Source: an uncultured Candidatus Saccharibacteria bacterium
GTDB taxonomy: Bacteria > Patescibacteriota > Saccharimonadia > Saccharimonadales > CAYVSP01
DNA: 62,533 nucleotides
Reading direction: 5' to 3'
Assembly (NCBI GenBank): GCA_964584265.1
Contig: CAZOZI010000005.1
Span: 1-62,533, forward strand
Below are positions 933 to 45,443 of the stretch, piece after piece. The translations under genes were made by a program, and so were the position numbers. Numbering within the stretch: position 1 is the first letter of the stretch; each line of letters opens with the position of its first letter. The notes below the pieces were generated by a model. The model did not search any database. It saw only the letters and a program-made list of their open reading frames with translations, and was not told the origin of the DNA.

Positions 933-1703
933 TTGATAAAAAACTCACGGTGTTATGCACAAAAACTTGGAGACTGCTCTAAAGCTCCCTCGAAAGAACA
1001 TATTCTTTCAAAAGACTTCTTGAAGGGAAATGCAAACTCAGGCAAAGATGAACTTATTAGAATTTCTGGATTTACGTGGCTTTCAGAGGGGGAATATCAA
1101 GATTTGCCAATTGCTACTATGTACTCAAGGGTTTTATGTGAGACACATAATAGTAAATTATCACCATTTGATAAAGAGGCTGGGCGCTTTCGAAGAACTC
1201 TACAAGAGTTTGATCAATATCTACTTGAAAACTGGACTGTCCTTAATAAAAGTTCACCTCCACGACCATTTAATGGCAGCCTACTGGAGCGGTGGATGTT
1301 AAAGGTTCTTTGCGGGCTTGCATATTCGGGGGCAGCAGAAACTAAGGGAATTGCTAAGAAGAAATGGCTGCCTCCTAACAAATGGTTACAAATATTATGG
1401 GGCAAAGAAGCTTTTCCTATTGGTTGTGGCCTTTATTGTCTGCCAGAATTTGTGAGTATAAAAGGCTGGTCCTTTGTGATATTTTCCAACTCTTTACAAG
1501 GTCCTTATGCCCTTAAGATGTCTATTGATGAAAAGACTTTTATTCTTGCTATGGATGATAAGTTAATAAAAACACATTTTAGTTCAGCAATATTTCATCC
1601 AGCAGTTATAACCACCAGCAAAGGTGCAAACGAATATAGCCTCCTAATAAATTGGGGTACTTCTGGCCCTGCTCAAAGCGTTACCTTCGTAAAACCTATA
1701 TAA
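933..1703 (+). CDS. HNH-endonuclease-like protein
   Basis: C-x6-C...SKEHILS...VLCETHNSKLSPFD matches the EH/LC-x2-(C/H)N pattern of HNH nucleases; TTG start uncertain. Confidence 0.6.
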   Translation: MIKNSRCYAQKLGDCSKAPSKEHILSKDFLKGNANSGKDELIRISGFTWLSEGEYQDLPIATMYSRVLCETHNSKLSPFDKEAGRFRRTLQEFDQYLLENWTVLNKSSPPRPFNGSLLERWMLKVLCGLAYSGAAETKGIAKKKWLPPNKWLQILWGKEAFPIGCGLYCLPEFVSIKGWSFVIFSNSLQGPYALKMSIDEKTFILAMDDKLIKTHFSSAIFHPAVITTSKGANEYSLLINWGTSGPAQSVTFVKPI

Positions 1704-1739
1704 AAAGCCTAAGTGCAAAACACAAATAAGACTAGCATG

Positions 1740-1759
1740 AAAATAAATTGCTAGCGATT
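1740..1759 (+). repeat. Intergenic 20-bp motif copy 1 (AAAATAAATTGCTAGCGATT, 16/20)
   Basis: Match to consensus AAAAGATATTGCTTGYGGTT; between convergent genes, contains the SWIM gene stop. Confidence 0.7.
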
Positions 1760-2062
1760 GCTAATTATGTAAAGCGTAAAAGCGATGCAGTGTTTGCAGA
1801 AAATCTGGTGATTTTTTGGGTTGCCGGCACAGTGCCACTCTAACCCTTTGGATGTAGCCGTCAGATTAACTCGGCGTCGTTGGCCGCCGCCTTCGGCGGA
1901 TGAGCCATCTAGGCCACCGACCCATGCTTCGACCTGCGATGGGGTTTGATTAATAATTTCCACGCCTCCACGTCTATAAATGGCCTGTCCGTACCGCCTA
2001 TTAGAGGGCAGGGTCAATTCTTCCATGGGGAGCTGGTGTAAAAGTTTAAGGAGGTGTTGCAC
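1751..2062 (-). CDS. SWIM zinc-finger-like protein
   Basis: C-terminal WHCAGNPKNHQIFCKHCIA resembles SWIM CxC...CKH; GTG start. Confidence 0.65.
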   Translation of the reverse strand: MQHLLKLLHQLPMEELTLPSNRRYGQAIYRRGGVEIINQTPSQVEAWVGGLDGSSAEGGGQRRRVNLTATSKGLEWHCAGNPKNHQIFCKHCIAFTLYIISNR

Positions 2063-2087
2063 TCTTACATTTTACGCTTCTGAGGGG

Positions 2088-2107
2088 AAAAGATATTGCT
2101 TGTGGTT
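2088..2107 (+). repeat. Motif copy 2 (AAAAGATATTGCTTGTGGTT, 20/20)
   Basis: Between tandem minus-strand genes; final TT belongs to the reverse-strand TAA stop at 2106-2108. Confidence 0.85.
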
Positions 2108-2642
2108 AGGTTTGGTTGCGGAGGTGGGTGGCTATAAGTTCAAGGTCAACAATGTCCTGTGGACGACCCAGAGCTTTTTTAGCAGCATCAATGTGTGGCA
2201 GCCCAAGGCAAAGGATACCATCGACCAGATTCGTTTCATCTCGATGAGTTTCGTAAGCAAGAGGGTAATATCCATCACCTAACTCATCAGTAGCACTAAG
2301 GGGCATAGCTAGACCTTCATGATTTATCCATACACTTGTATTTGTGGCACCATGCGATTTAGCACTTTCAGGTGGCTCATGCACCTCAGCCCCATCTTTT
2401 AAGCTAAGTGTCCTTAGTAAGCTCGCGCTCGCAAGAATATCAATATCGCGTGTTGTTTCACGTATGCCACGGAGCACTAAGTTCGCACCGCCAATGACAA
2501 AATAATGAAACCTTGCAATGCCAAGACTATTCCTGCCAAGTCCCAAGCGGCCAAGCGTTTGATGTATTGAGTTTCTGTCTCGAAGAGGAAGTGCCTCTGT
2601 TTGTCTAGGATAGTAGGTTTTCACACTGTCAGGCGAAGTCAT
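2106..2642 (-). CDS. Nucleotidyltransferase-fold (Pol beta superfamily) protein
   Basis: VIGGANLVLRGIRETTRDIDIL = GG...DxD signature; start moved to ATG 2642 (TATAAT 7 nt upstream). Confidence 0.7.
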   Translation of the reverse strand: MTSPDSVKTYYPRQTEALPLRDRNSIHQTLGRLGLGRNSLGIARFHYFVIGGANLVLRGIRETTRDIDILASASLLRTLSLKDGAEVHEPPESAKSHGATNTSVWINHEGLAMPLSATDELGDGYYPLAYETHRDETNLVDGILCLGLPHIDAAKKALGRPQDIVDLELIATHLRNQT

Positions 2643-2670
2643 GAACAGAATTATACAACTGAGGGATATG

Positions 2671-2690
2671 AAAAGATATTGCTTGTGCTT
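2671..2690 (+). repeat. Motif copy 3 (AAAAGATATTGCTTGTGCTT, 19/20)
   Basis: Between divergent genes. Confidence 0.85.
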
Positions 2691-2723
2691 GTGTGGCAAG
2701 AAGAAGTGAATATACTTTAGTTC

Positions 2724-3302
2724 ATGAGCGAGACAACTGAAGCAATTGTGACAGGGGATTTGAATGCTCACTCTGTGGATTTCAAAGATGCTGTAACAGC
2801 AGCGCTTGAGACTGATCCTGCTTTAGCTACAAACAGTGAGGGAAATCTTGAGCGCCGTTTGCAAATAAATAACCGCTACCTTACGTATACTGCTTTTGGT
2901 CCTGAGCCTCAAGGTCCCGGCAAGTCCATTTTATGGATTAAATACAGCCCTACCCATGCACTTGAACTCGAATTTGACCCAGCAAGTGACTTTTTATTTG
3001 GCGTCTCAGAAGATTTATCCCAACCGATCCGGCGTAGATACAGATATGGAGGCATGATTGGGGCGAGCGGGGGCTTACCAGATTTATTCACGGCAGAACA
3101 TGCACTAACTGGTGAAGAAGCCCAAGCTCTTCTGGATTTCATGAGCACCCCGCACCTTAAGCTTGGCAATATGGCCTTGTTTGCAACGCTTACCGAAGAA
3201 GAAAAAGAAGCAAAAACGGCAGATGCTCAAAAGGTTGCAAAGCAAAGGAGGAACCTACAAAGAGACTTGGACGCACTTGCGCGAACCCACTACCGCTTAT
3301 AA
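2724..3302 (+). CDS. Hypothetical protein (ORFan-like)
   Basis: 192-aa ORF; TATACT 7 nt before ATG; no recognised motif. Confidence 0.75.
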   Translation: MSETTEAIVTGDLNAHSVDFKDAVTAALETDPALATNSEGNLERRLQINNRYLTYTAFGPEPQGPGKSILWIKYSPTHALELEFDPASDFLFGVSEDLSQPIRRRYRYGGMIGASGGLPDLFTAEHALTGEEAQALLDFMSTPHLKLGNMALFATLTEEEKEAKTADAQKVAKQRRNLQRDLDALARTHYRL

Positions 3303-3305
3303 ATG

Positions 3306-3325
3306 AAAAGATATTGATAATTTTT
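3306..3325 (+). repeat. Motif copy 4, degenerate or split (AAAAGATATTGATAATTTTT, 15/20)
   Basis: First 11 nt perfect; a CTTGTACGTT half follows ~11 nt later; between tandem plus-strand genes. Confidence 0.6.
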
Positions 3326-3348
3326 GACTTGTACGTTGTAATACAGCT

Positions 3349-3726
3349 ATGAAAAGGCGAAATGACCGAGGCCAGCGACGACAAGAAGCACTGGACACAG
3401 CCGCGGCTATATCAGGGCATTACTATGGTGAGGCAGTATTTCCACCTCCACTCACAGAAGTGGTGGATCAATTAGGCGAGAGCTTTTCTAAGGTGCAATA
3501 TGCGGTTGGATCTTACCCACTTGCGCTAGAAGAAGCAACAGGCTTAGTAGTTATTCATGAAGGAATTGTGCTGGGAGATCCTAGTAAATTCGTTGGTTCA
3601 GCCGAGAAATCCACAGACTCTGTTGTAGAAAGCTTTGTCAATCAACTCAATGGGCTACCTCAAGATCTTAGGCTACAAGTGCTGAGTCGCCTAGCCGTGA
3701 GCGAAGCAAGCGTACAACCACAATAA
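3349..3726 (+). CDS. Hypothetical protein
   Basis: 125-aa ORF filling the interval between motif copies 4 and 5. Confidence 0.65.
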   Translation: MKRRNDRGQRRQEALDTAAAISGHYYGEAVFPPPLTEVVDQLGESFSKVQYAVGSYPLALEEATGLVVIHEGIVLGDPSKFVGSAEKSTDSVVESFVNQLNGLPQDLRLQVLSRLAVSEASVQPQ

Positions 3727-3749
3727 GGACTAAGTTAAATTGTTGATCT

Positions 3750-3769
3750 GAATGGTATAGCCTGTGGTT
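3750..3769 (+). repeat. Motif copy 5 (GAATGGTATAGCCTGTGGTT, 15/20)
   Basis: Between tandem plus-strand genes. Confidence 0.65.
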
Positions 3770-3840
3770 GCCTAACCTTTCACACACCCTGGAAATGTTG
3801 TAAAATATGAATAATCTAGAGGCAAAGAAGATACAGTGTA

Positions 3841-4878
3841 ATGATTGAAATCGAAGGTGAGGCTACATTAACACCGGTTTGCTACTCAGGCACTGAGTTT
3901 GGTGCTCTCTTAGAAGCTGCCCAGAAAACTGGCTTGCCGGCCACATTGAGTTGGAGCGCGCAGTTAGCCGAAAGCACGTACGGCTACGTTGTTGGGGCAG
4001 GAGGTACTAGGCGCACGGTTGCGGTCGTTGAAGAACATAGCGCAAAAACGGTTAACTGGTATGCACAGACCTTTCGAGCAAGAAGAGAGTTAAGCGAACC
4101 GGAAATTTTTGATACCGTTTGCCATCAAATGGTAGAAGAGGCTAAAGAGACCCCTCTTAGTAGAGAAGAAGTGTTTGCTACACTGGATGAGCTCTTTTTG
4201 GGCAACAGACTAGCTCTGCAGTATCCAAGTGTGATTTTAGAATGTAACGATCCCGGTCGCGCTGAAGGATCTTATGTTGATATGAGCAGAGGTGATTCCC
4301 GTAGTATCCAGGCCCATTATGACAAAAAAATTGACGATTACGGACCTAAAATTGATATTGCCGATGTGGTGAGAGAATCGTTCAAAGATGATGATAGCGA
4401 TGTGGCTACGCTCGCACATGATGTTGGTGTTCATATGGGTGATTTACCGGAAACGTTTGTTGTAGGCGAGGGGCAGGCATTCGTTGTCTATCGGACGCGC
4501 TTTGGCCGTTATAATTGGACATTCGCGCCTGATGGCCCTCTGGTAGACGATATGATTCTTATAAATCCGGAGGGCAGCAGTAAGTGGTATGTAGGACAGG
4601 TTGAGGTTGGCGAAGAGCTGACTCCAGAAGTCATAGAACGATTCGCGTCATACGGCTTTGAACACCGTAACTCAGACATTCCGGGTGTGCTTATTGGGGG
4701 AATTATCAGGCGAATAGATCGGTCATTTGTGAACCCACCGAAATCTTATCTACTAACTAATCGTCTAAAAGCTCAGATGGCAGAAATACGAGCAATGGAA
4801 GGCGCCAAAGAGGAGAGAGATAGAAGAGAAGAAGATGTCATAGAACCTTACGAGTTTCTGGATGAGCCAACAATCTAG
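3841..4878 (+). CDS. Hypothetical acidic protein
   Basis: 345-aa ORF, no recognised motif. Confidence 0.75.
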   Translation: MIEIEGEATLTPVCYSGTEFGALLEAAQKTGLPATLSWSAQLAESTYGYVVGAGGTRRTVAVVEEHSAKTVNWYAQTFRARRELSEPEIFDTVCHQMVEEAKETPLSREEVFATLDELFLGNRLALQYPSVILECNDPGRAEGSYVDMSRGDSRSIQAHYDKKIDDYGPKIDIADVVRESFKDDDSDVATLAHDVGVHMGDLPETFVVGEGQAFVVYRTRFGRYNWTFAPDGPLVDDMILINPEGSSKWYVGQVEVGEELTPEVIERFASYGFEHRNSDIPGVLIGGIIRRIDRSFVNPPKSYLLTNRLKAQMAEIRAMEGAKEERDRREEDVIEPYEFLDEPTI

Positions 4879-41863: not shown

Positions 41864-41881
41864 GAGGTGTATAGTAAAAGT

Positions 41882-42190
41882 ATGAGAGTGGTGCTGCTGT
41901 ATCGGCCAAAGTCGGAATTTGCACGAGGTGTTGAGGAATTTGTACACGAATATGAACGGCGCGATGCCTCTAGGCACATAGAGCTACTTGATTATGACAG
42001 TCGGGAAGGCCAAAATCTGGCCGGCCTATATGAAATTTACCAACATCCAGCACTACTTGTTCTAGCAGATGATGGCAAAGTTATCCAAATGTGGATGGGG
42101 CCGCAACTGCCGCTTATGGACGAACTAGCCGCTTACGCTAGTAGTGGTGGCAATATGTTTCTTGCAGAGGCTACCGCTAGTACGCTATAG
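41882..42190 (+). CDS. Small hypothetical protein, possibly thioredoxin-like fold without CxxC
   Basis: MRVVLLYRPKSE...YEIYQHPALLVLADDG; TATAGT 6 nt before ATG 41882. Confidence 0.65.
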   Translation: MRVVLLYRPKSEFARGVEEFVHEYERRDASRHIELLDYDSREGQNLAGLYEIYQHPALLVLADDGKVIQMWMGPQLPLMDELAAYASSGGNMFLAEATASTL

Positions 42191-42200
42191 TTAGTTTAAT

Positions 42201-42536
42201 CCGTTTAAGCAGCTATCAACTGCGAAGGAGTGGGAAGAACATTGACATTTTGCGTTATCGGCCTTGCGCTTGGATGCGATACAAGGAAGAAACGAGTAGC
42301 TGAATGAGGCGTACAGATTAGTACGTTGAACGAGCAACGGAGTTTCTGACGAAGTAGTGCGCCAAGAATGCCAGCGGAGTTTCAGCTCTGCTGAAAACAG
42401 GCTGGCATGGCGCAAGTGTCGATAAGTAGAACTCACCGGGTAAGCCCGTAAAAGCAGTAATTAAGTCCCAAGTAGGATGGCACCGCGTGATTCACGCTCC
42501 TACGCTAGAGGGACTTTTTGTTTTAGAAGGAGACAA
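42201..42536 (+). ncRNA. T-box riboswitch (Ile, AUC specifier; ultrashort Stem I, probably translational)
   Basis: gcag-ctATCaa-ctgc (42209-23); Stem II gagt...gaagaac / agtagaactc; cggg-taag-cccg Stem IIA (42437-48); gtagga-TGGCACC-gcgt-gattc-acgc-tcctac (42472-42503); ctcct can pair with SD aggag (42528-32). Confidence 0.85.
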
Positions 42537-45443
42537 GTGAAATTCAAGCAAGGCACACGGCGCAAGCCAATCGAATACGAGAAAGATCTCGTTAGACACT
42601 GGAAGGAAAATAAAACCTTTGAGAAGTCTGTTGAAATGCGTCCCAAAGACAATGCCTACGTGTTTTACGATGGGCCGCCATTTATTACCGGTGTGCCACA
42701 TCATGGTACGCTGCTCAGTTCTGTGGTTAAAGACGCTGTACCTCGCTATTGGACCATGAAAGGCAAGCGGGTAGAGCGGGTATGGGGCTGGGACTGTCAT
42801 GGCTTGCCGGCAGAGATTTATACCGAGAAAAAGCTTGGCATTAAAGATAGAAGAGAAATTGGTACTAAAATTAGCCTAGAAGATTACATCAAGGCCTGTC
42901 GGGCTAACATGGTACAGACTGGTAGTGAATGGGAAGATACCATTGACCGAATCGGTCGCTGGGTCAATTTTAGAGGCGCTTACAAGACCATGGACAAAGA
43001 GTACATGGAATCCGTCTGGTGGGCTTTTAAGAAACTTTATGACGCCGGTAAGATCTACGAAGGTGAAAAGGTATTACTTTATTGTACGCGCGATGCTACA
43101 CCGCTCTCTAAAGCCGAAGTGGCTATGGATAATAGCTATCAGGATGATACGGATCCGAGTGTGTACGTTAAGTTTAAGCTCAAAGGCGAGAGTACATATC
43201 TCTTAGCTTGGACGACGACACCTTGGACGCTGTTATCCAACACTGCTATAGCGGTAAACAAAGATATTACTTATATTGAAGTCGAGCTTGATGGTGAGCA
43301 CATGATCATTGCGAAAGACCTAGCCAAACGAGTCTTAACAGATGAAAAGCACCAAGAGCTTAACTACAAGGTAGTACGGACGTTTAAAGGCGAGGAACTC
43401 GTCGGCAAAGATTATGAACCACTGTTTAACGACCGTGGCAAGAATGCTCACAAAGTCTGGCATGCACCATTTGTTCATACAGAGGAAGGTACAGGCATTG
43501 CTCATGAATCACCGGCATACGGTGAAGATGACTATGAGCTTGCTAAAAAGAACAAGGTTCCGATAGTTCTTGATACAGATGAGGAGGGTTTTTACACTGA
43601 AGGTGAGTGGAAAGGCCAGCTTGTTTGGGATGTTAATAAGGATATCGCCAAGGCACTACATGAGCGCGGCGTTGTCTGGAAGATAGAATATATAACTCAT
43701 TCCTATCCACATTGCCATCGCTGTGGCACCAGGCTCATGTATCGGGCTCACCCTAGTTGGTTTATGGATATCGATGGACAACGCAAAGAAATGCTGGAGC
43801 AAAATGCCAATATAAATTGGTTTCCAGAGCATATTAAGCACGGGCGCTTTGAGAAAACAGTCGAGAGTGCACCAGATTGGAACTTATCGCGTGATCGTTT
43901 TTGGGCAACAGCTATGCCTGTTTGGAAGGGTATCGATAAGCACGGCAAAGAGCACATCAAAGTTATCGGCAGCTACGCTGAGCTTAAAGAACTATCCGGT
44001 AAGGAGTTAGAAGACTATCATCGTCCATGGATAGATGATGTTACATTTACAATAGAAGGTGTCAAATATAAGAGAGTGGATAAAGTAATGGACTCTTGGT
44101 TTGAAGCCGGCAGCATGCCATTTGCCCAATTCCACTATCCCTTCGAAAATACTGAAAAATTTGAAGAGAATTTCCCTGGTGACTTCATTGCTGAGTACGT
44201 AGGACAGGTAAGAGCCTGGTTTTATTATCTGCACGGGGTTTCAGTCGGTCTTATGGGCAAAAACTCTTTTAAAAATGTCATTGTGACGGGTACTATAGTC
44301 GGCAACGACGGTCGCAAGATGAGCAAGAGCTATGGTAATTATACTGATCCCAATGAACTGGTGGACATGTATAGTGCTGATGCGCTGCGTCTTCTGTATC
44401 TTAGTTCACCCGTGTTAAACGGTGAAGATTTCGCTCTAAAAGACAAAGATGTTGCCGACATCAACCGTAAATTATCTATGGTCTGGAATATGTATGATTT
44501 CTTTACGATGTACGCTGAAGTTGATGGCTGGCATTGGAATGGAAAACTGGAGGATCCAATTGAAGAAGGAAGCAATCTGTTAGATCAATGGATTGTTTCC
44601 CGAGTACATCAGCTTATAGAAGAAATTGACGCTAACATGCAGCTTTATGATATTCCAAACGCTCTCAAACCAGTTCTGCCATTTATCGATGATGCCAGTA
44701 ACTGGTATGTACGCCGCTCGCGGCGACGTTTTTGGAAATCTGGGGATGATACTGATAAGCAAGCTGCTTACCGAACGCTACACTACGTTTTGGTGCGTCT
44801 AAGTCAAGCATTAGCACCGTTTACGCCATTTATGGCCGAAGAGATTTTCTTGAAACTTACAGGCGGGGAGATGGGTGAAAGTGTACATTTGCTAGATTGG
44901 CCAGAAGTCGGCCACGTCAATGAGCAAGTACTTGAAAAGATGGCAGTGGTAAGGAGAGTTATCACCGAAGGCCTGTCGCAACGAGCCGAAGCCGGAATTA
45001 AGGTACGCCAGCCACTTGCTTCTATAGAAGCACCAGAATTTGACGATGAATTGCTAGGAATCATAAAGGAAGAGCTAAATGTTAAAGAAGTCTCCCCCTC
45101 AGTTTCACCCAGTCCATCACCGAGCGCAGAAGCCAGCGATAAGGAGATAATCAAGCTCGATACGAAGATTACCTCAGAGCTTAAACGAGAAGGGTTAATG
45201 AGGGAAGTGGTGCGGCAGGTGCAAAGTGCTCGCAAAACCGCTGGATTGAATGTTGATGACCGTATTTTATTGGTACTTGTAACAGACAACAAAGAGTTAG
45301 AAAAAGCCATCCGAGAGCATATAGATATTATCAAACAAGAAACATTAGCCACTCATCTTACTGGAGAAGGCAACAGCAACTATAAAGCAGAAGTAAAAAT
45401 CGAGAACCAAAATCTTACAATTGGCCTAAGTAAAGCTTCCTAA
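42537..45443 (+). CDS. ileS: Isoleucyl-tRNA synthetase (likely type 2)
   Basis: DGPPFITGVPHHG, GWDCHGLP, WTTTPWT, KMSKS; GTG start 42537 after AAGGAG. Confidence 0.95.
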   Translation: MKFKQGTRRKPIEYEKDLVRHWKENKTFEKSVEMRPKDNAYVFYDGPPFITGVPHHGTLLSSVVKDAVPRYWTMKGKRVERVWGWDCHGLPAEIYTEKKLGIKDRREIGTKISLEDYIKACRANMVQTGSEWEDTIDRIGRWVNFRGAYKTMDKEYMESVWWAFKKLYDAGKIYEGEKVLLYCTRDATPLSKAEVAMDNSYQDDTDPSVYVKFKLKGESTYLLAWTTTPWTLLSNTAIAVNKDITYIEVELDGEHMIIAKDLAKRVLTDEKHQELNYKVVRTFKGEELVGKDYEPLFNDRGKNAHKVWHAPFVHTEEGTGIAHESPAYGEDDYELAKKNKVPIVLDTDEEGFYTEGEWKGQLVWDVNKDIAKALHERGVVWKIEYITHSYPHCHRCGTRLMYRAHPSWFMDIDGQRKEMLEQNANINWFPEHIKHGRFEKTVESAPDWNLSRDRFWATAMPVWKGIDKHGKEHIKVIGSYAELKELSGKELEDYHRPWIDDVTFTIEGVKYKRVDKVMDSWFEAGSMPFAQFHYPFENTEKFEENFPGDFIAEYVGQVRAWFYYLHGVSVGLMGKNSFKNVIVTGTIVGNDGRKMSKSYGNYTDPNELVDMYSADALRLLYLSSPVLNGEDFALKDKDVADINRKLSMVWNMYDFFTMYAEVDGWHWNGKLEDPIEEGSNLLDQWIVSRVHQLIEEIDANMQLYDIPNALKPVLPFIDDASNWYVRRSRRRFWKSGDDTDKQAAYRTLHYVLVRLSQALAPFTPFMAEEIFLKLTGGEMGESVHLLDWPEVGHVNEQVLEKMAVVRRVITEGLSQRAEAGIKVRQPLASIEAPEFDDELLGIIKEELNVKEVSPSVSPSPSPSAEASDKEIIKLDTKITSELKREGLMREVVRQVQSARKTAGLNVDDRILLVLVTDNKELEKAIREHIDIIKQETLATHLTGEGNSNYKAEVKIENQNLTIGLSKAS

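Follow-up and report, generated by a model that had tools for sequence, protein, structure and literature searches.

The ileS leader of a Saccharibacteria genome is a stripped-down T-box riboswitch interrupted by a structured repeat in Stem II

The leader of ileS (about 42198-42536) in the window, a 62,533-nucleotide stretch of DNA from an uncultured Candidatus Saccharibacteria bacterium (contig CAZOZI010000005.1), is, judged from sequence comparison, a genuine T-box riboswitch of a stripped-down type. The account that we favor, and hold to be somewhat better than an even bet as a whole, is that this is a T-box of a kind proper to the Patescibacteria, that it acts by transcription attenuation through a helix (P) enclosing the T-box helix and the U-run that follows, that the long insert in its Stem II is a repeat foreign to the switch, and that the leader was inherited within the phylum.

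Results

All features described here lie on the plus strand. The gene ileS (42537-45443) encodes a type 2 isoleucyl-tRNA synthetase (TIGR00392, 809.6 bits) and is single-copy, being the sole TIGR00392 match above cut-off in the genome; the solved structures closest to the protein were 8c8u and 1ile (about 640-680 bits), compared with 294 bits for 1ffy. The Shine-Dalgarno (SD) sequence AAGGAG (42527-32) and the GTG start codon (42537-39) together span 42527-42539; the choice of start codon is in keeping with relatives, whose starts read ATG/GTG AAG/AAA TTC AAG. At the other end of the leader, a putative -10 promoter box TATAGT (42186-42191), read from the sequence, overlaps the upstream ORF's stop codon. 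Relatives carry TATAGT, TATACT, TATAAT or TACAAT boxes at the same offset upstream of a conserved AAUCCGUU; TATAGT is the probable -10 box, from which transcription would start near 42198.

The ultrashort Stem I (42209-42223) has 4 bp, formed by GCAG (42209-12) and CUGC (42220-23), and a 7-nt terminal loop, CUAUCAA (42213-19), which holds the isoleucine specifier AUC (42215-17) followed by a purine, A; the distal platform for the tRNA elbow is absent from this short stem. Stem II begins 6 nt later. Its 5' side (42230-42247) consists of the lower helix GUGGG (42230-34), the S-turn strand AAGAAC (42235-40) and the upper helix AUUGACA (42241-47), and its 3' side (42417-42436) consists of the upper helix UGUCGAU (42417-23), the S-turn strand AAGUAGAA (42424-31) and the lower helix CUCAC (42432-36). 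The purine strands of Stem II read GGGAAGAAC (42232-40) and AAGUAGAAC (42424-32). The Stem IIA hairpin CGGG-UAAG-CCCG (42437-48) and its linker (together 42437-42455) come next, with a Stem IIB pseudoknot of only 2 bp (GC 42444-45 with GC 42454-55). The T-box discriminator helix (42472-42503) is made of A1 (GUAGGA 42472-77 with UCCUAC 42498-503) and A2 (GCGUG 42485-89 with CACGC 42493-97, loop AUU), separated by the 7-nt T-box bulge UGGCACC (42478-84). Helix P encloses the discriminator; its 5' arm AAGUCCC (42463-42469) forms 7 perfect pairs with the 3' arm GGGACUU (42510-16), and the latter runs into the U-run UUUUUGUUUU (42515-24), the stretch 42510-42524 being read as a terminator. Only UCCC-AA stands between AAG and A1, where many relatives have a Stem III hairpin that this leader lacks, and the first three bases of the 5' arm, AAG (42463-65), appear to stand where the discriminator has its conserved RAG motif. 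A preliminary description of this DNA had listed Stem I with its ATC loop, the Stem II strands, IIA, the UGGCACC-bulge helix and a 7-bp aagtccc/gggactt helix around the discriminator; on inspection of the sequence every one of these motifs lay where it had been placed. The U5GU4 run after the enclosing helix was not mentioned there.

A covariance model (R1) built from 59 related ileS leaders, with this leader left out, matched both halves of the leader, at 42378-42525 (65.5 bits, E 1e-13) and 42205-42323 (34.2 bits, E 2e-6), and gave no other match in the rest of the 819-kb genome. Among the 59 relatives, 96.5% of helix cells were paired, versus 30-45% in slid controls, and compensatory changes were seen at 19 of the 23 helix pairs. 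Stem I was 100% paired and all 4 of its pairs covaried; the lower helix of Stem II was 91.9% paired with covariation at 5/5 pairs; IIA was 94.9% paired; A1 and A2 were 99.2 and 96.3% paired, respectively, with compensatory changes at nine of their 11 pairs. The GAAGAA of the Stem II 5' strand and the AAGUAGAAC region were nearly invariant. The IIB loop-to-linker pairing averaged 3.44 bp across the family versus 2.46 +/- 0.09 for mismatched pairs, the present leader having 2 bp. The sequence AGGAUGGCACCGCG (42474-87) agrees with the T-box consensus AGGGUGGNACCGCG at 13 of 14 positions and was aligned as the T-box sequence by both R1 and Rfam. The fold P+A1+A2 was the minimum-energy fold (-21.4 kcal/mol).

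The standard Rfam model responded far less. No Rfam family matched in the whole window at the gathering threshold, and in E-value mode the region 42150-42600 gave only a weak T-box match and a chance miRNA match. The check by covariance models that the preliminary description had proposed was answered in two ways: R1 matched both halves, but RF00230 reached only 26.7 bits against a gathering score of 93 (E 4e-4 on 451 nt). The sub-threshold alignment also placed AGUAGAAC, on the 3' side of Stem II, and Stem IIA on the T-box consensus, and it misplaced 'Stem I' onto one of the insert's hairpins. Of 41 genomes of the order, none reached the RF00230 gathering threshold, and only two of five control genomes with a match did so.

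The loop triplet was AUC in 60 of 61 parses, the one remaining being a mis-parse. In other Patescibacteria the triplet fits the synthetase encoded downstream, with GUC before ValRS genes (three cases), AUC before IleRS genes and GAC before an AspRS-type gene. Together with the covariation and the R1 matches, this agreement bears out the preliminary identification of an ileS T-box with an ultrashort Stem I and AUC in its terminal loop, and the leader should read uncharged tRNA-Ile(GAU). The organism's own tRNA-Ile(GAU) gene was not found in the assembly by ARAGORN, pattern search or BLAST, so the base that faces UGGC was taken from nine relatives: all nine tRNA-Ile genes recovered from Saccharibacteria had the anticodon GAU and A73. 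UGGC thus probably faces A73 in a C·A mismatch. Most relatives, and all close ones, have UGGU, which is able to pair with A73; since the nearest relatives carry UGGU, UGGC is the derived state here. One of these A73 tRNA-Ile(GAU) genes comes from a genome that likewise has a UGGC leader (L028).

What separates the two strands of Stem II by 169 nt is the insertion of a dispersed repeat at the apex. Compared with its paralogues and with related leaders, this segment (42248-42416, in the apical loop) does not belong to the switch: a mobile repeat of about 170 nt, conserved in structure, was inserted there recently, in the orientation of the leader. BLAST recovered 18 other copies of the repeat at 68-83% identity. 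The repeat model R2 matched 42255-42425 over model positions 1-172 with 158.6 bits, a score to be read knowing that the seed alignment included this copy; with it, 42 copies were counted in this genome, and 26 of 31 genomes of the order carry the family. Among paralogues 45 of 56 repeat pairs showed compensatory changes, the fold being a branched three-way junction with conserved internal loops and a closing stem whose sequence differs from copy to copy. Copies are intergenic, in either orientation, and sometimes lie within functional genes without destroying them; an in-frame piece was found within ileS of one relative (L053). No transposase partner was identified for the repeat. The insert was absent from the ileS leaders of G013 (same genus), G016, G014 and G029 and from the T-box at all 80 related loci, and the apex of Stem II is likely a site where insertion is tolerated. 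The insert was missed in the preliminary description. Two further readings of it were rejected. It carries GGAAGAAAC and GAAGUAG motifs that recall a nested, degenerate second T-box, but it belongs to a 42-copy family with its own fold; its closing stem was also considered as a target hairpin, but in the T-box this stem does not take in the 7-bp native upper Stem II, which is external to it.

Rickettsia palindromic elements and MITE-type repeats are short non-coding, hairpin-forming repeats of bacterial genomes. The Stem II repeat resembles them in being short, non-coding and hairpin-forming, in numbering tens of copies in a small genome, and in its mostly intergenic placement, with both orientations represented and an occasional copy within a functional gene. 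It differs from both in its three-way junction, which is not a simple palindrome, in a closing stem that varies from copy to copy, and in its place inside a riboswitch stem.

The output of the switch is most likely transcription attenuation, unusually wired. A helix of 7-16 bp that encloses the T-box helix adjoins a U-run in about 55 of 58 leaders, and matched P arms paired over 10.1 bp in the family compared with 7.0 +/- 0.23 bp for mismatched arms. A U-run ended all 17 T-boxes retrieved from other Patescibacteria, and a comparable run was found upstream of only two of 508 long ORFs (0.4%) in this genome. In the proposed mechanism, AAGUCCC just 5' of A1 would carry the RAG-type purines that latch the tRNA's 3' end, and its pairing with GGGACUU would create one long hairpin, P+A1+A2, leading directly into UUUUUGUUUU. 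Without uncharged tRNA this hairpin would form and RNA polymerase would stop; with uncharged tRNA bound, the RAG strand would be held in the sensing pocket, P would be blocked, and transcription would read through into ileS. Because helix P and A1/A2 are not in base-by-base competition, the block of P by tRNA would depend on a tertiary contact that we infer; in the M. tuberculosis T-box the RAG motif touches the terminal A of the tRNA (PMC11297988). A generic terminator scan did not flag the site, because the enclosed 'loop' exceeds the 3-8 nt limit of the scan, and terminator-like sites in the region were not above shuffled expectation. Downstream of genes there was no excess of U-runs, T5 runs (99) being as frequent as A5 runs (103), so that the genome at large offers no separate indication of U-run terminators being in use.

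Translational control by SD sequestration, which the preliminary description had proposed, would have the 3' strands of A2 and A1 (CACGCUCCU) pair with the SD and the start codon when uncharged tRNA is lacking, leaving the U-run with no role as a terminator. The complementarity exists: CUCCU (42497-501) can pair with AGGAG (42528-32), and the pairing extends to G/C and CAC/GUG in a fold of -11.6 kcal/mol that covers both SD and start codon. In G013 the A1 3' strand forms the hairpin CUCCUGC-AGCUAA-GCAGGAG, with the SD as its 3' arm. The lack of a general U-run excess after genes would also suit this reading, and an ultrashort Stem I has so far been described for translational T-boxes only (PMC7583486, PMC12990946). 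However, the sequestrator fold was no better than that of shuffled sequence (z -1.1) and about 10 kcal/mol weaker than the discriminator fold, so that the SD would stay accessible whether or not tRNA is present. The SD pairing is also not conserved, the A1 3' strand of relatives being mostly UCCGGU, UCUGAC or UCCAAC with no complement to the SD, whereas the helix and U-run are kept in nearly all leaders, with UUUUUAUUUU coming after the G013 hairpin as well. Moreover, in several relatives the T-box lies 70-1100 nt away from the ileS match, or extra ORFs stand between them. Sequestration is thus a weakly supported reading, and we regard a translational switch as unlikely.

Some features of the leader could also indicate decay, that is, a former T-box that the arrival of the repeat, together with subsequent changes, has disabled or blunted and that no longer responds to tRNA, with ileS expressed more or less constitutively. 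The 5' flank of the insert (UUUUGCGUUAUCG) may, according to the folding model, mask the S-turn strand AAGUAGAA; this pairing was predicted at -12.6 kcal/mol and would outcompete the native upper Stem II (-6.1 kcal/mol). The predicted C·A mismatch where all close relatives have UGGU, the 2-bp IIB pseudoknot and the A2 pair beside the bulge, which is G-C where the commonest family state is G·U, point the same way. The canonical alternative terminator, formed from the A1 3' strand over 7-9 bp in close relatives, is down to 4 contiguous pairs here (-3.3 kcal/mol). By contrast, all conserved nucleotide blocks are intact, the Stem I region shares 97% identity with that of the same-genus relative, and the 3' half still scores 65.5 bits with R1. 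Helix P is perfect and has even been improved at one pair, from U·G to U-A. The combination of UGGC with an A73 tRNA is found in at least one other lineage with a whole leader (L028), a 2-bp IIB is common to several relatives, and the T-box-competent fold costs only 3.6 kcal/mol over the optimum. With a stable hairpin and U-run standing before the sole ileS, the loss of antitermination should be harmful, which counts against decay. We consider a decayed switch quite improbable and retain attenuation by a working T-box as the preferred reading.

The leader was present at 76 of 80 Saccharibacteria ileS loci, and the same design occurred in 113 of 301 sampled Patescibacteria genomes, in many families and with up to four copies per genome, where it also precedes valS, aspS-type and thrS genes. 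The GC content of ileS (44.2%) is close to that of the genome (44.4%), and the gene upstream is syntenic in relatives. These observations tell against the suggestion in the preliminary description that Saccharibacteria obtained ileS, leader included, from their actinobacterial host lineage. The type 2 IleRS found here would suit the suggestion, since actinobacterial IleRS is also type 2. In addition, among characterized systems the actinobacterial ileS T-boxes come closest to the design (PMC7583486), and a M. tuberculosis tRNA-Ile construct ends in GCCA, which would match the UGGC bulge (PMC12647780). However, UGGC is derived here and the nearest relatives have UGGU. Such an acquisition is very unlikely in our estimation. 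Inheritance of the leader within the phylum, and not from an actinobacterial host, is the simplest explanation of these sequence data; an ancient transfer, in either direction, may have occurred.

Discussion

The ultrashort-Stem-I ileS T-boxes of actinobacteria (Mycobacterium tuberculosis, M. smegmatis) were reportedly described by Sherwood, Grundy & Henkin in 2015 and are said to be represented by structures 6UFG and 6UFH. The present leader shares with them the gene, the AUC specifier and a very short Stem I without a platform for the tRNA elbow (PMC7583486, PMC11297988, PMC12990946), together with the Stem II S-turn purines, the IIA/B pseudoknot, which in actinobacteria has a 3-bp linker pairing (same sources), the RAG-type purines and a UGGN bulge between A1 and A2. 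It differs from them in several respects. The actinobacterial switches are translational, with a sequestrator more stable than the antisequestrator, whereas here the sequestrator is the weaker fold, and pairing with the SD is both weak and unconserved; the conserved output is instead a helix around the T-box helix followed by a U-run. A Stem III hairpin, described as indispensable in reviews (PMC7583486), is present in the actinobacterial leaders and missing from this one. The host here belongs to the Patescibacteria, in which the design serves Val and Asp synthetase genes too, and a 169-nt mobile insert occupies Stem II.

With canonical transcriptional T-boxes (RF00230; Bacillus subtilis tyrS and glyQS) the leader shares the T-box sequence, the bulge that would pair with the tRNA NCCA end, Stem II and IIA/B, and a hairpin with a U-run as the likely off state. 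In contrast to these, it lacks a long Stem I, a K-turn and a distal double T-loop, its specifier is in a terminal loop, and its terminator-like helix uses the strand 5' of A1 (the RAG region) and not the A1/A2 3' strands. A long Stem I is generally required by transcriptional T-boxes (PMC7583486). In TBDB, use of the class II model was confined to Actinobacteria and truncated class I hits (PMC7778990), and our literature search found no T-box described in the CPR, Patescibacteria or Saccharibacteria.

We suggest tentatively, with confidence that falls a little short of even, that Saccharibacteria ileS leaders represent an undescribed wiring, in which an elbow-less, ultrashort-Stem-I sensor would be joined to an intrinsic terminator that takes its 5' arm from the discriminator's own RAG or Stem III module and not from the 3' strand of the T-box helix, and in which tRNA would avert termination by holding that module in a tertiary contact, with no alternative helix to stabilize; the present leader would in addition tolerate, or be tuned by, a 169-nt mobile RNA.

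T-boxes are textbook regulators of Gram-positive bacteria. Their frequency in the candidate phyla radiation, where the standard model misses them (no genome of the 41 passing), carries this classic mechanism into a large and poorly understood branch of bacteria. In the published view, sensors without an elbow platform act only on translation, the slower level, and only for ileS. A terminator-coupled ultrashort T-box serving several amino acids would, if true, challenge both parts of that view and would provide a very small natural scaffold on which to study the sensing of tRNA charging by RNA while transcription proceeds. The Stem II repeat points to a position at which the switch may take on large cargo, and it ties the riboswitch to an abundant, undescribed mobile RNA fold.

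Identity of the ileS leader

The leader region (42201-42536) was flanked by a 107-aa open reading frame (ORF; 41867-42190) and by a GTG start codon at 42537, which opens the gene for isoleucyl-tRNA synthetase (TIGR00392, 809.6 bits), a single-copy gene in the genome. This IleRS was of type 2; its nearest solved structures were 8c8u and 1ile (approximately 640-680 bits, vs 294 bits for 1ffy). The 107-aa ORF, which had no match in an NCBIfam search, was conserved in relatives at a syntenic position, and its stop codon overlapped the probable -10 box of the leader.

All motifs named in the preliminary description were found in place: Stem I (GCAG-CUAUCAA-CUGC, 42209-42223) with AUC at 42215-42217, the S-turn strands of Stem II (GGGAAGAAC and AAGUAGAAC), Stem IIA (CGGG-UAAG-CCCG), the T-box helix with its bulge (GUAGGA-UGGCACC-GCGUG...CACGC-UCCUAC), the enclosing 7-bp helix P (AAGUCCC/GGGACUU) and a CUCCU complementary to the SD. 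No Rfam match at gathering level was obtained over the entire window. When the leader alone was searched, RF00230 scored 26.7 bits (E 4e-4) vs a gathering score of 93; AGGAUGGCACCGCG, AGUAGAAC and Stem IIA were placed correctly in that alignment, and Stem I wrongly. The RF00230 threshold was reached in 0 of 41 genomes of the order.

Eighty related ileS loci were fetched, all from Saccharibacteria-like MAGs with an IleRS identity of 68-77%, and a single architecture was common to their leaders. Pairs were counted over five helices in an alignment of 59 related leaders from which the window's own was excluded. In these, 96.5% of the helix cells were paired, vs 30-45% when the partners were slid, and both sides had changed at 19 of 23 pairs. 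Stem I was 100% paired with covariation in all four pairs, and the IIA/B pseudoknot paired over 3.44 bp when matched vs 2.46 ± 0.09 in the mismatched control. A covariance model built from this alignment (R1) matched the leader in two pieces, 42205-42323 (34.2 bits, E 2e-6) and 42378-42525 (65.5 bits, E 1e-13), because an insert splits the leader. The rest of the genome gave no further match. Of the 80 loci, 76 had a leader recognised by R1, and at least 17 of these lay outside the model-building set. The R1 matches and the covariation in the 59 relatives therefore place the leader securely in the T-box family, broadly defined, as had been proposed, despite the sub-threshold Rfam score.

Specifier and tRNA-Ile

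The Stem I loop triplet was AUC in all good parses, in agreement with the specifier originally assigned. The triplet was also compared with the gene lying 3' in 17 R1 matches fetched from other Patescibacteria. AUC loops were located 5' of IleRS genes, GUC loops 5' of three ValRS genes, a GAC loop 5' of an aspartate--tRNA(Asn) ligase gene and AAC loops 5' of two AspRS-type genes; this correspondence independently supports a specifier role for the terminal-loop triplet. Ultrashort-Stem-I T-boxes (L132-L148, from genomes G037, G041, G059, G201, G249 and G311) also occurred 5' of thrS, and a single genome could have as many as four. The AAC (Asn) loop 5' of a bacterial-type aspS in G059 would suggest that this gene senses tRNA-Asn.

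The gene for tRNA-Ile(GAU) was not found among the 41 tRNA genes of the genome (assembly 97.5% complete). Its probable location is an rRNA operon missing from the assembly, since it adjoins tRNA-Ala(UGC) in relatives. Nine tRNA-Ile(GAU) genes could be recovered from relatives, and every one had A73 and an encoded CCA. The bulge was UGGU, which pairs with A73, in most leaders, those of the nearest relatives included. UGGC was observed in the window's leader and in that of L028, a locus whose genome carries an A73 tRNA. Because the tRNA-Ile of relatives, including this UGGC genome, has A73, UGGC would most likely face it as a C·A mismatch. The M. tuberculosis tRNA-Ile construct is described as ending in GCCA (PMC12647780), and UGGC would match a tRNA with G73.

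A mobile repeat inserted in Stem II

A mobile structured repeat accounts for the large insertion in Stem II. The S-turn strands were 10-30 nt apart in relatives vs approximately 185 nt in the window's leader. The middle part of the leader matched many other places in BLAST searches against relatives, with 18 further copies in the window's own genome. Fifteen copies aligned as a three-way junction of 56 pairs, 45 of them retained by compensatory change. A covariance model of the repeat (R2) detected 42 full-length copies in the 819-kb genome, namely the leader copy (42248-42416, 169 nt) and 41 at other sites (e.g., G000 C8:8367-8538, C8:25211-25382 and C1:30011-30182), and 19-37 in several relatives. 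Of 31 genomes of the order, 26 carried this family, which is about 170 nt long and lacks an Rfam entry; copies were mostly intergenic and in both orientations. The ileS leaders of G013 (same genus), G016, G014 and G029 had a short Stem II apex without the insert, and the repeat lay inside the T-box at 0 of 80 related loci. Judged from these comparisons, the insertion is therefore recent and unique in this sample.

The 5' flank of the repeat, UUUUGCGUUAUCG (42248-42262), resembled a decayed inverted copy of the 3'-side host sequence CGAUAAGUAGAA (42417-42432), with a likeness of 10/13 positions that 3% of random 16-mers equalled. This pattern would fit the idea of elements that make an inverted copy of their target. 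A partial copy of the repeat (L053:2175-2260; model positions 21-106, 68.1 bits) was also seen within the ileS coding match (1501-4455) of another Saccharibacterium, and part of it appears to be translated in frame with the open ileS reading frame.

Folding with the repeat deleted in silico gave the canonical fold. With the repeat stacked on the native 7-bp upper Stem II, the T-box-competent fold lay 3.6 kcal/mol over the optimum. Pairing of the flank with the S-turn strand was predicted at -12.6 kcal/mol vs -6.1 for the native upper stem, and the flank may possibly mask that strand. Given the C·A mismatch and this possible masking, function of the T-box in this genome is plausible but unproven.

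Expression platform

Among 58 parsed leaders, about 55 had a helix P of 7-16 bp abutting a U-run. Its 5' arm lay 1-11 nt upstream of A1, one of the two helices (A1 and A2) flanking the bulge, and the arms paired over 10.1 bp when matched vs 7.0 ± 0.23 when mismatched. A U-run like UUUUUGUUUU was present 5' of only 2 of 508 long ORFs, and U-runs ended 17 of 17 T-boxes fetched from other Patescibacteria. Where a Stem III hairpin was present, P drew its 5' arm from the loop and 3' strand of that hairpin, which makes P and Stem III mutually exclusive. The AAGUCCC subgroup, to which the window's leader belongs, had no Stem III, and its P 5' arm opened with AAG at the position of the RAG motif; in the T-box of M. 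tuberculosis, that motif touches the tRNA's terminal A (PMC11297988).

Translational control through SD sequestration had been suggested. The CUCCU-SD pairing does exist, but the sequestrator over the SD and start codon reached only -11.6 kcal/mol (z -1.1) vs -21.4 kcal/mol for the minimum-energy fold, P+A1+A2, making this unlikely as the main mechanism. A canonical terminator of 7-9 bp could form from the A1 3' strand in AAGUCCC-subgroup relatives; in the window's leader it had only 4 contiguous pairs (-3.3 kcal/mol). P with the U-run would instead serve as a terminator and keep the switch off by default, because a tRNA-activated switch would otherwise regulate nothing. Uncharged tRNA would then block P by engaging RAG or the Stem III module. 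Counting against a terminator, a generic scan left the leader site unflagged, and U-runs were not enriched after genes in this genome.

One or two small ORFs separated the T-box from ileS in seven relatives (L047, L017, L050, L053, L013, L045 and L051), and there the T-box would head a small operon; the intervening ORFs were of 70-198 aa and often overlapped the ileS start. In three other relatives the gap was 70-126 nt without an ORF. The platform differed in the ileS leader of L125 (G013:C17, same genus), which had no enclosing helix. Here the SD formed the 3' arm of a clean hairpin (CUCCUGC-AGCUAA-GCAGGAG), which was followed by UUUUUAUUUU and AUG and could be terminator and sequestrator at once.

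Distribution and relation to known T-boxes

In an even sample of 301 genomes from the phylum, 113 gave an R1 match; these included many families beyond the window's class, and some genomes had up to four copies. The GC content of ileS (44.2%) was close to that of the genome (44.4%), and the gene upstream of the leader was syntenic in relatives. These three observations argue against a recent acquisition of ileS and its leader from an actinobacterial host, and the proposed host-derived transfer is not supported by the sequence comparisons.

Full-text searches, in which literature coverage was incomplete, returned no T-boxes linked with Saccharibacteria, Patescibacteria or the candidate phyla radiation. 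The TBDB class II model was searched in Actinobacteria and truncated class I hits only (PMC7778990). In reviews, ultrashort Stem I elements are described as ileS T-boxes that act on translation and occur mostly in Actinobacteria, and a long Stem I as a general requirement of transcriptional T-boxes (PMC7583486; PMC12990946). In contrast to those translational elements, the leader described here combines an ultrashort Stem I with helix P and a U-run that would act as a terminator.
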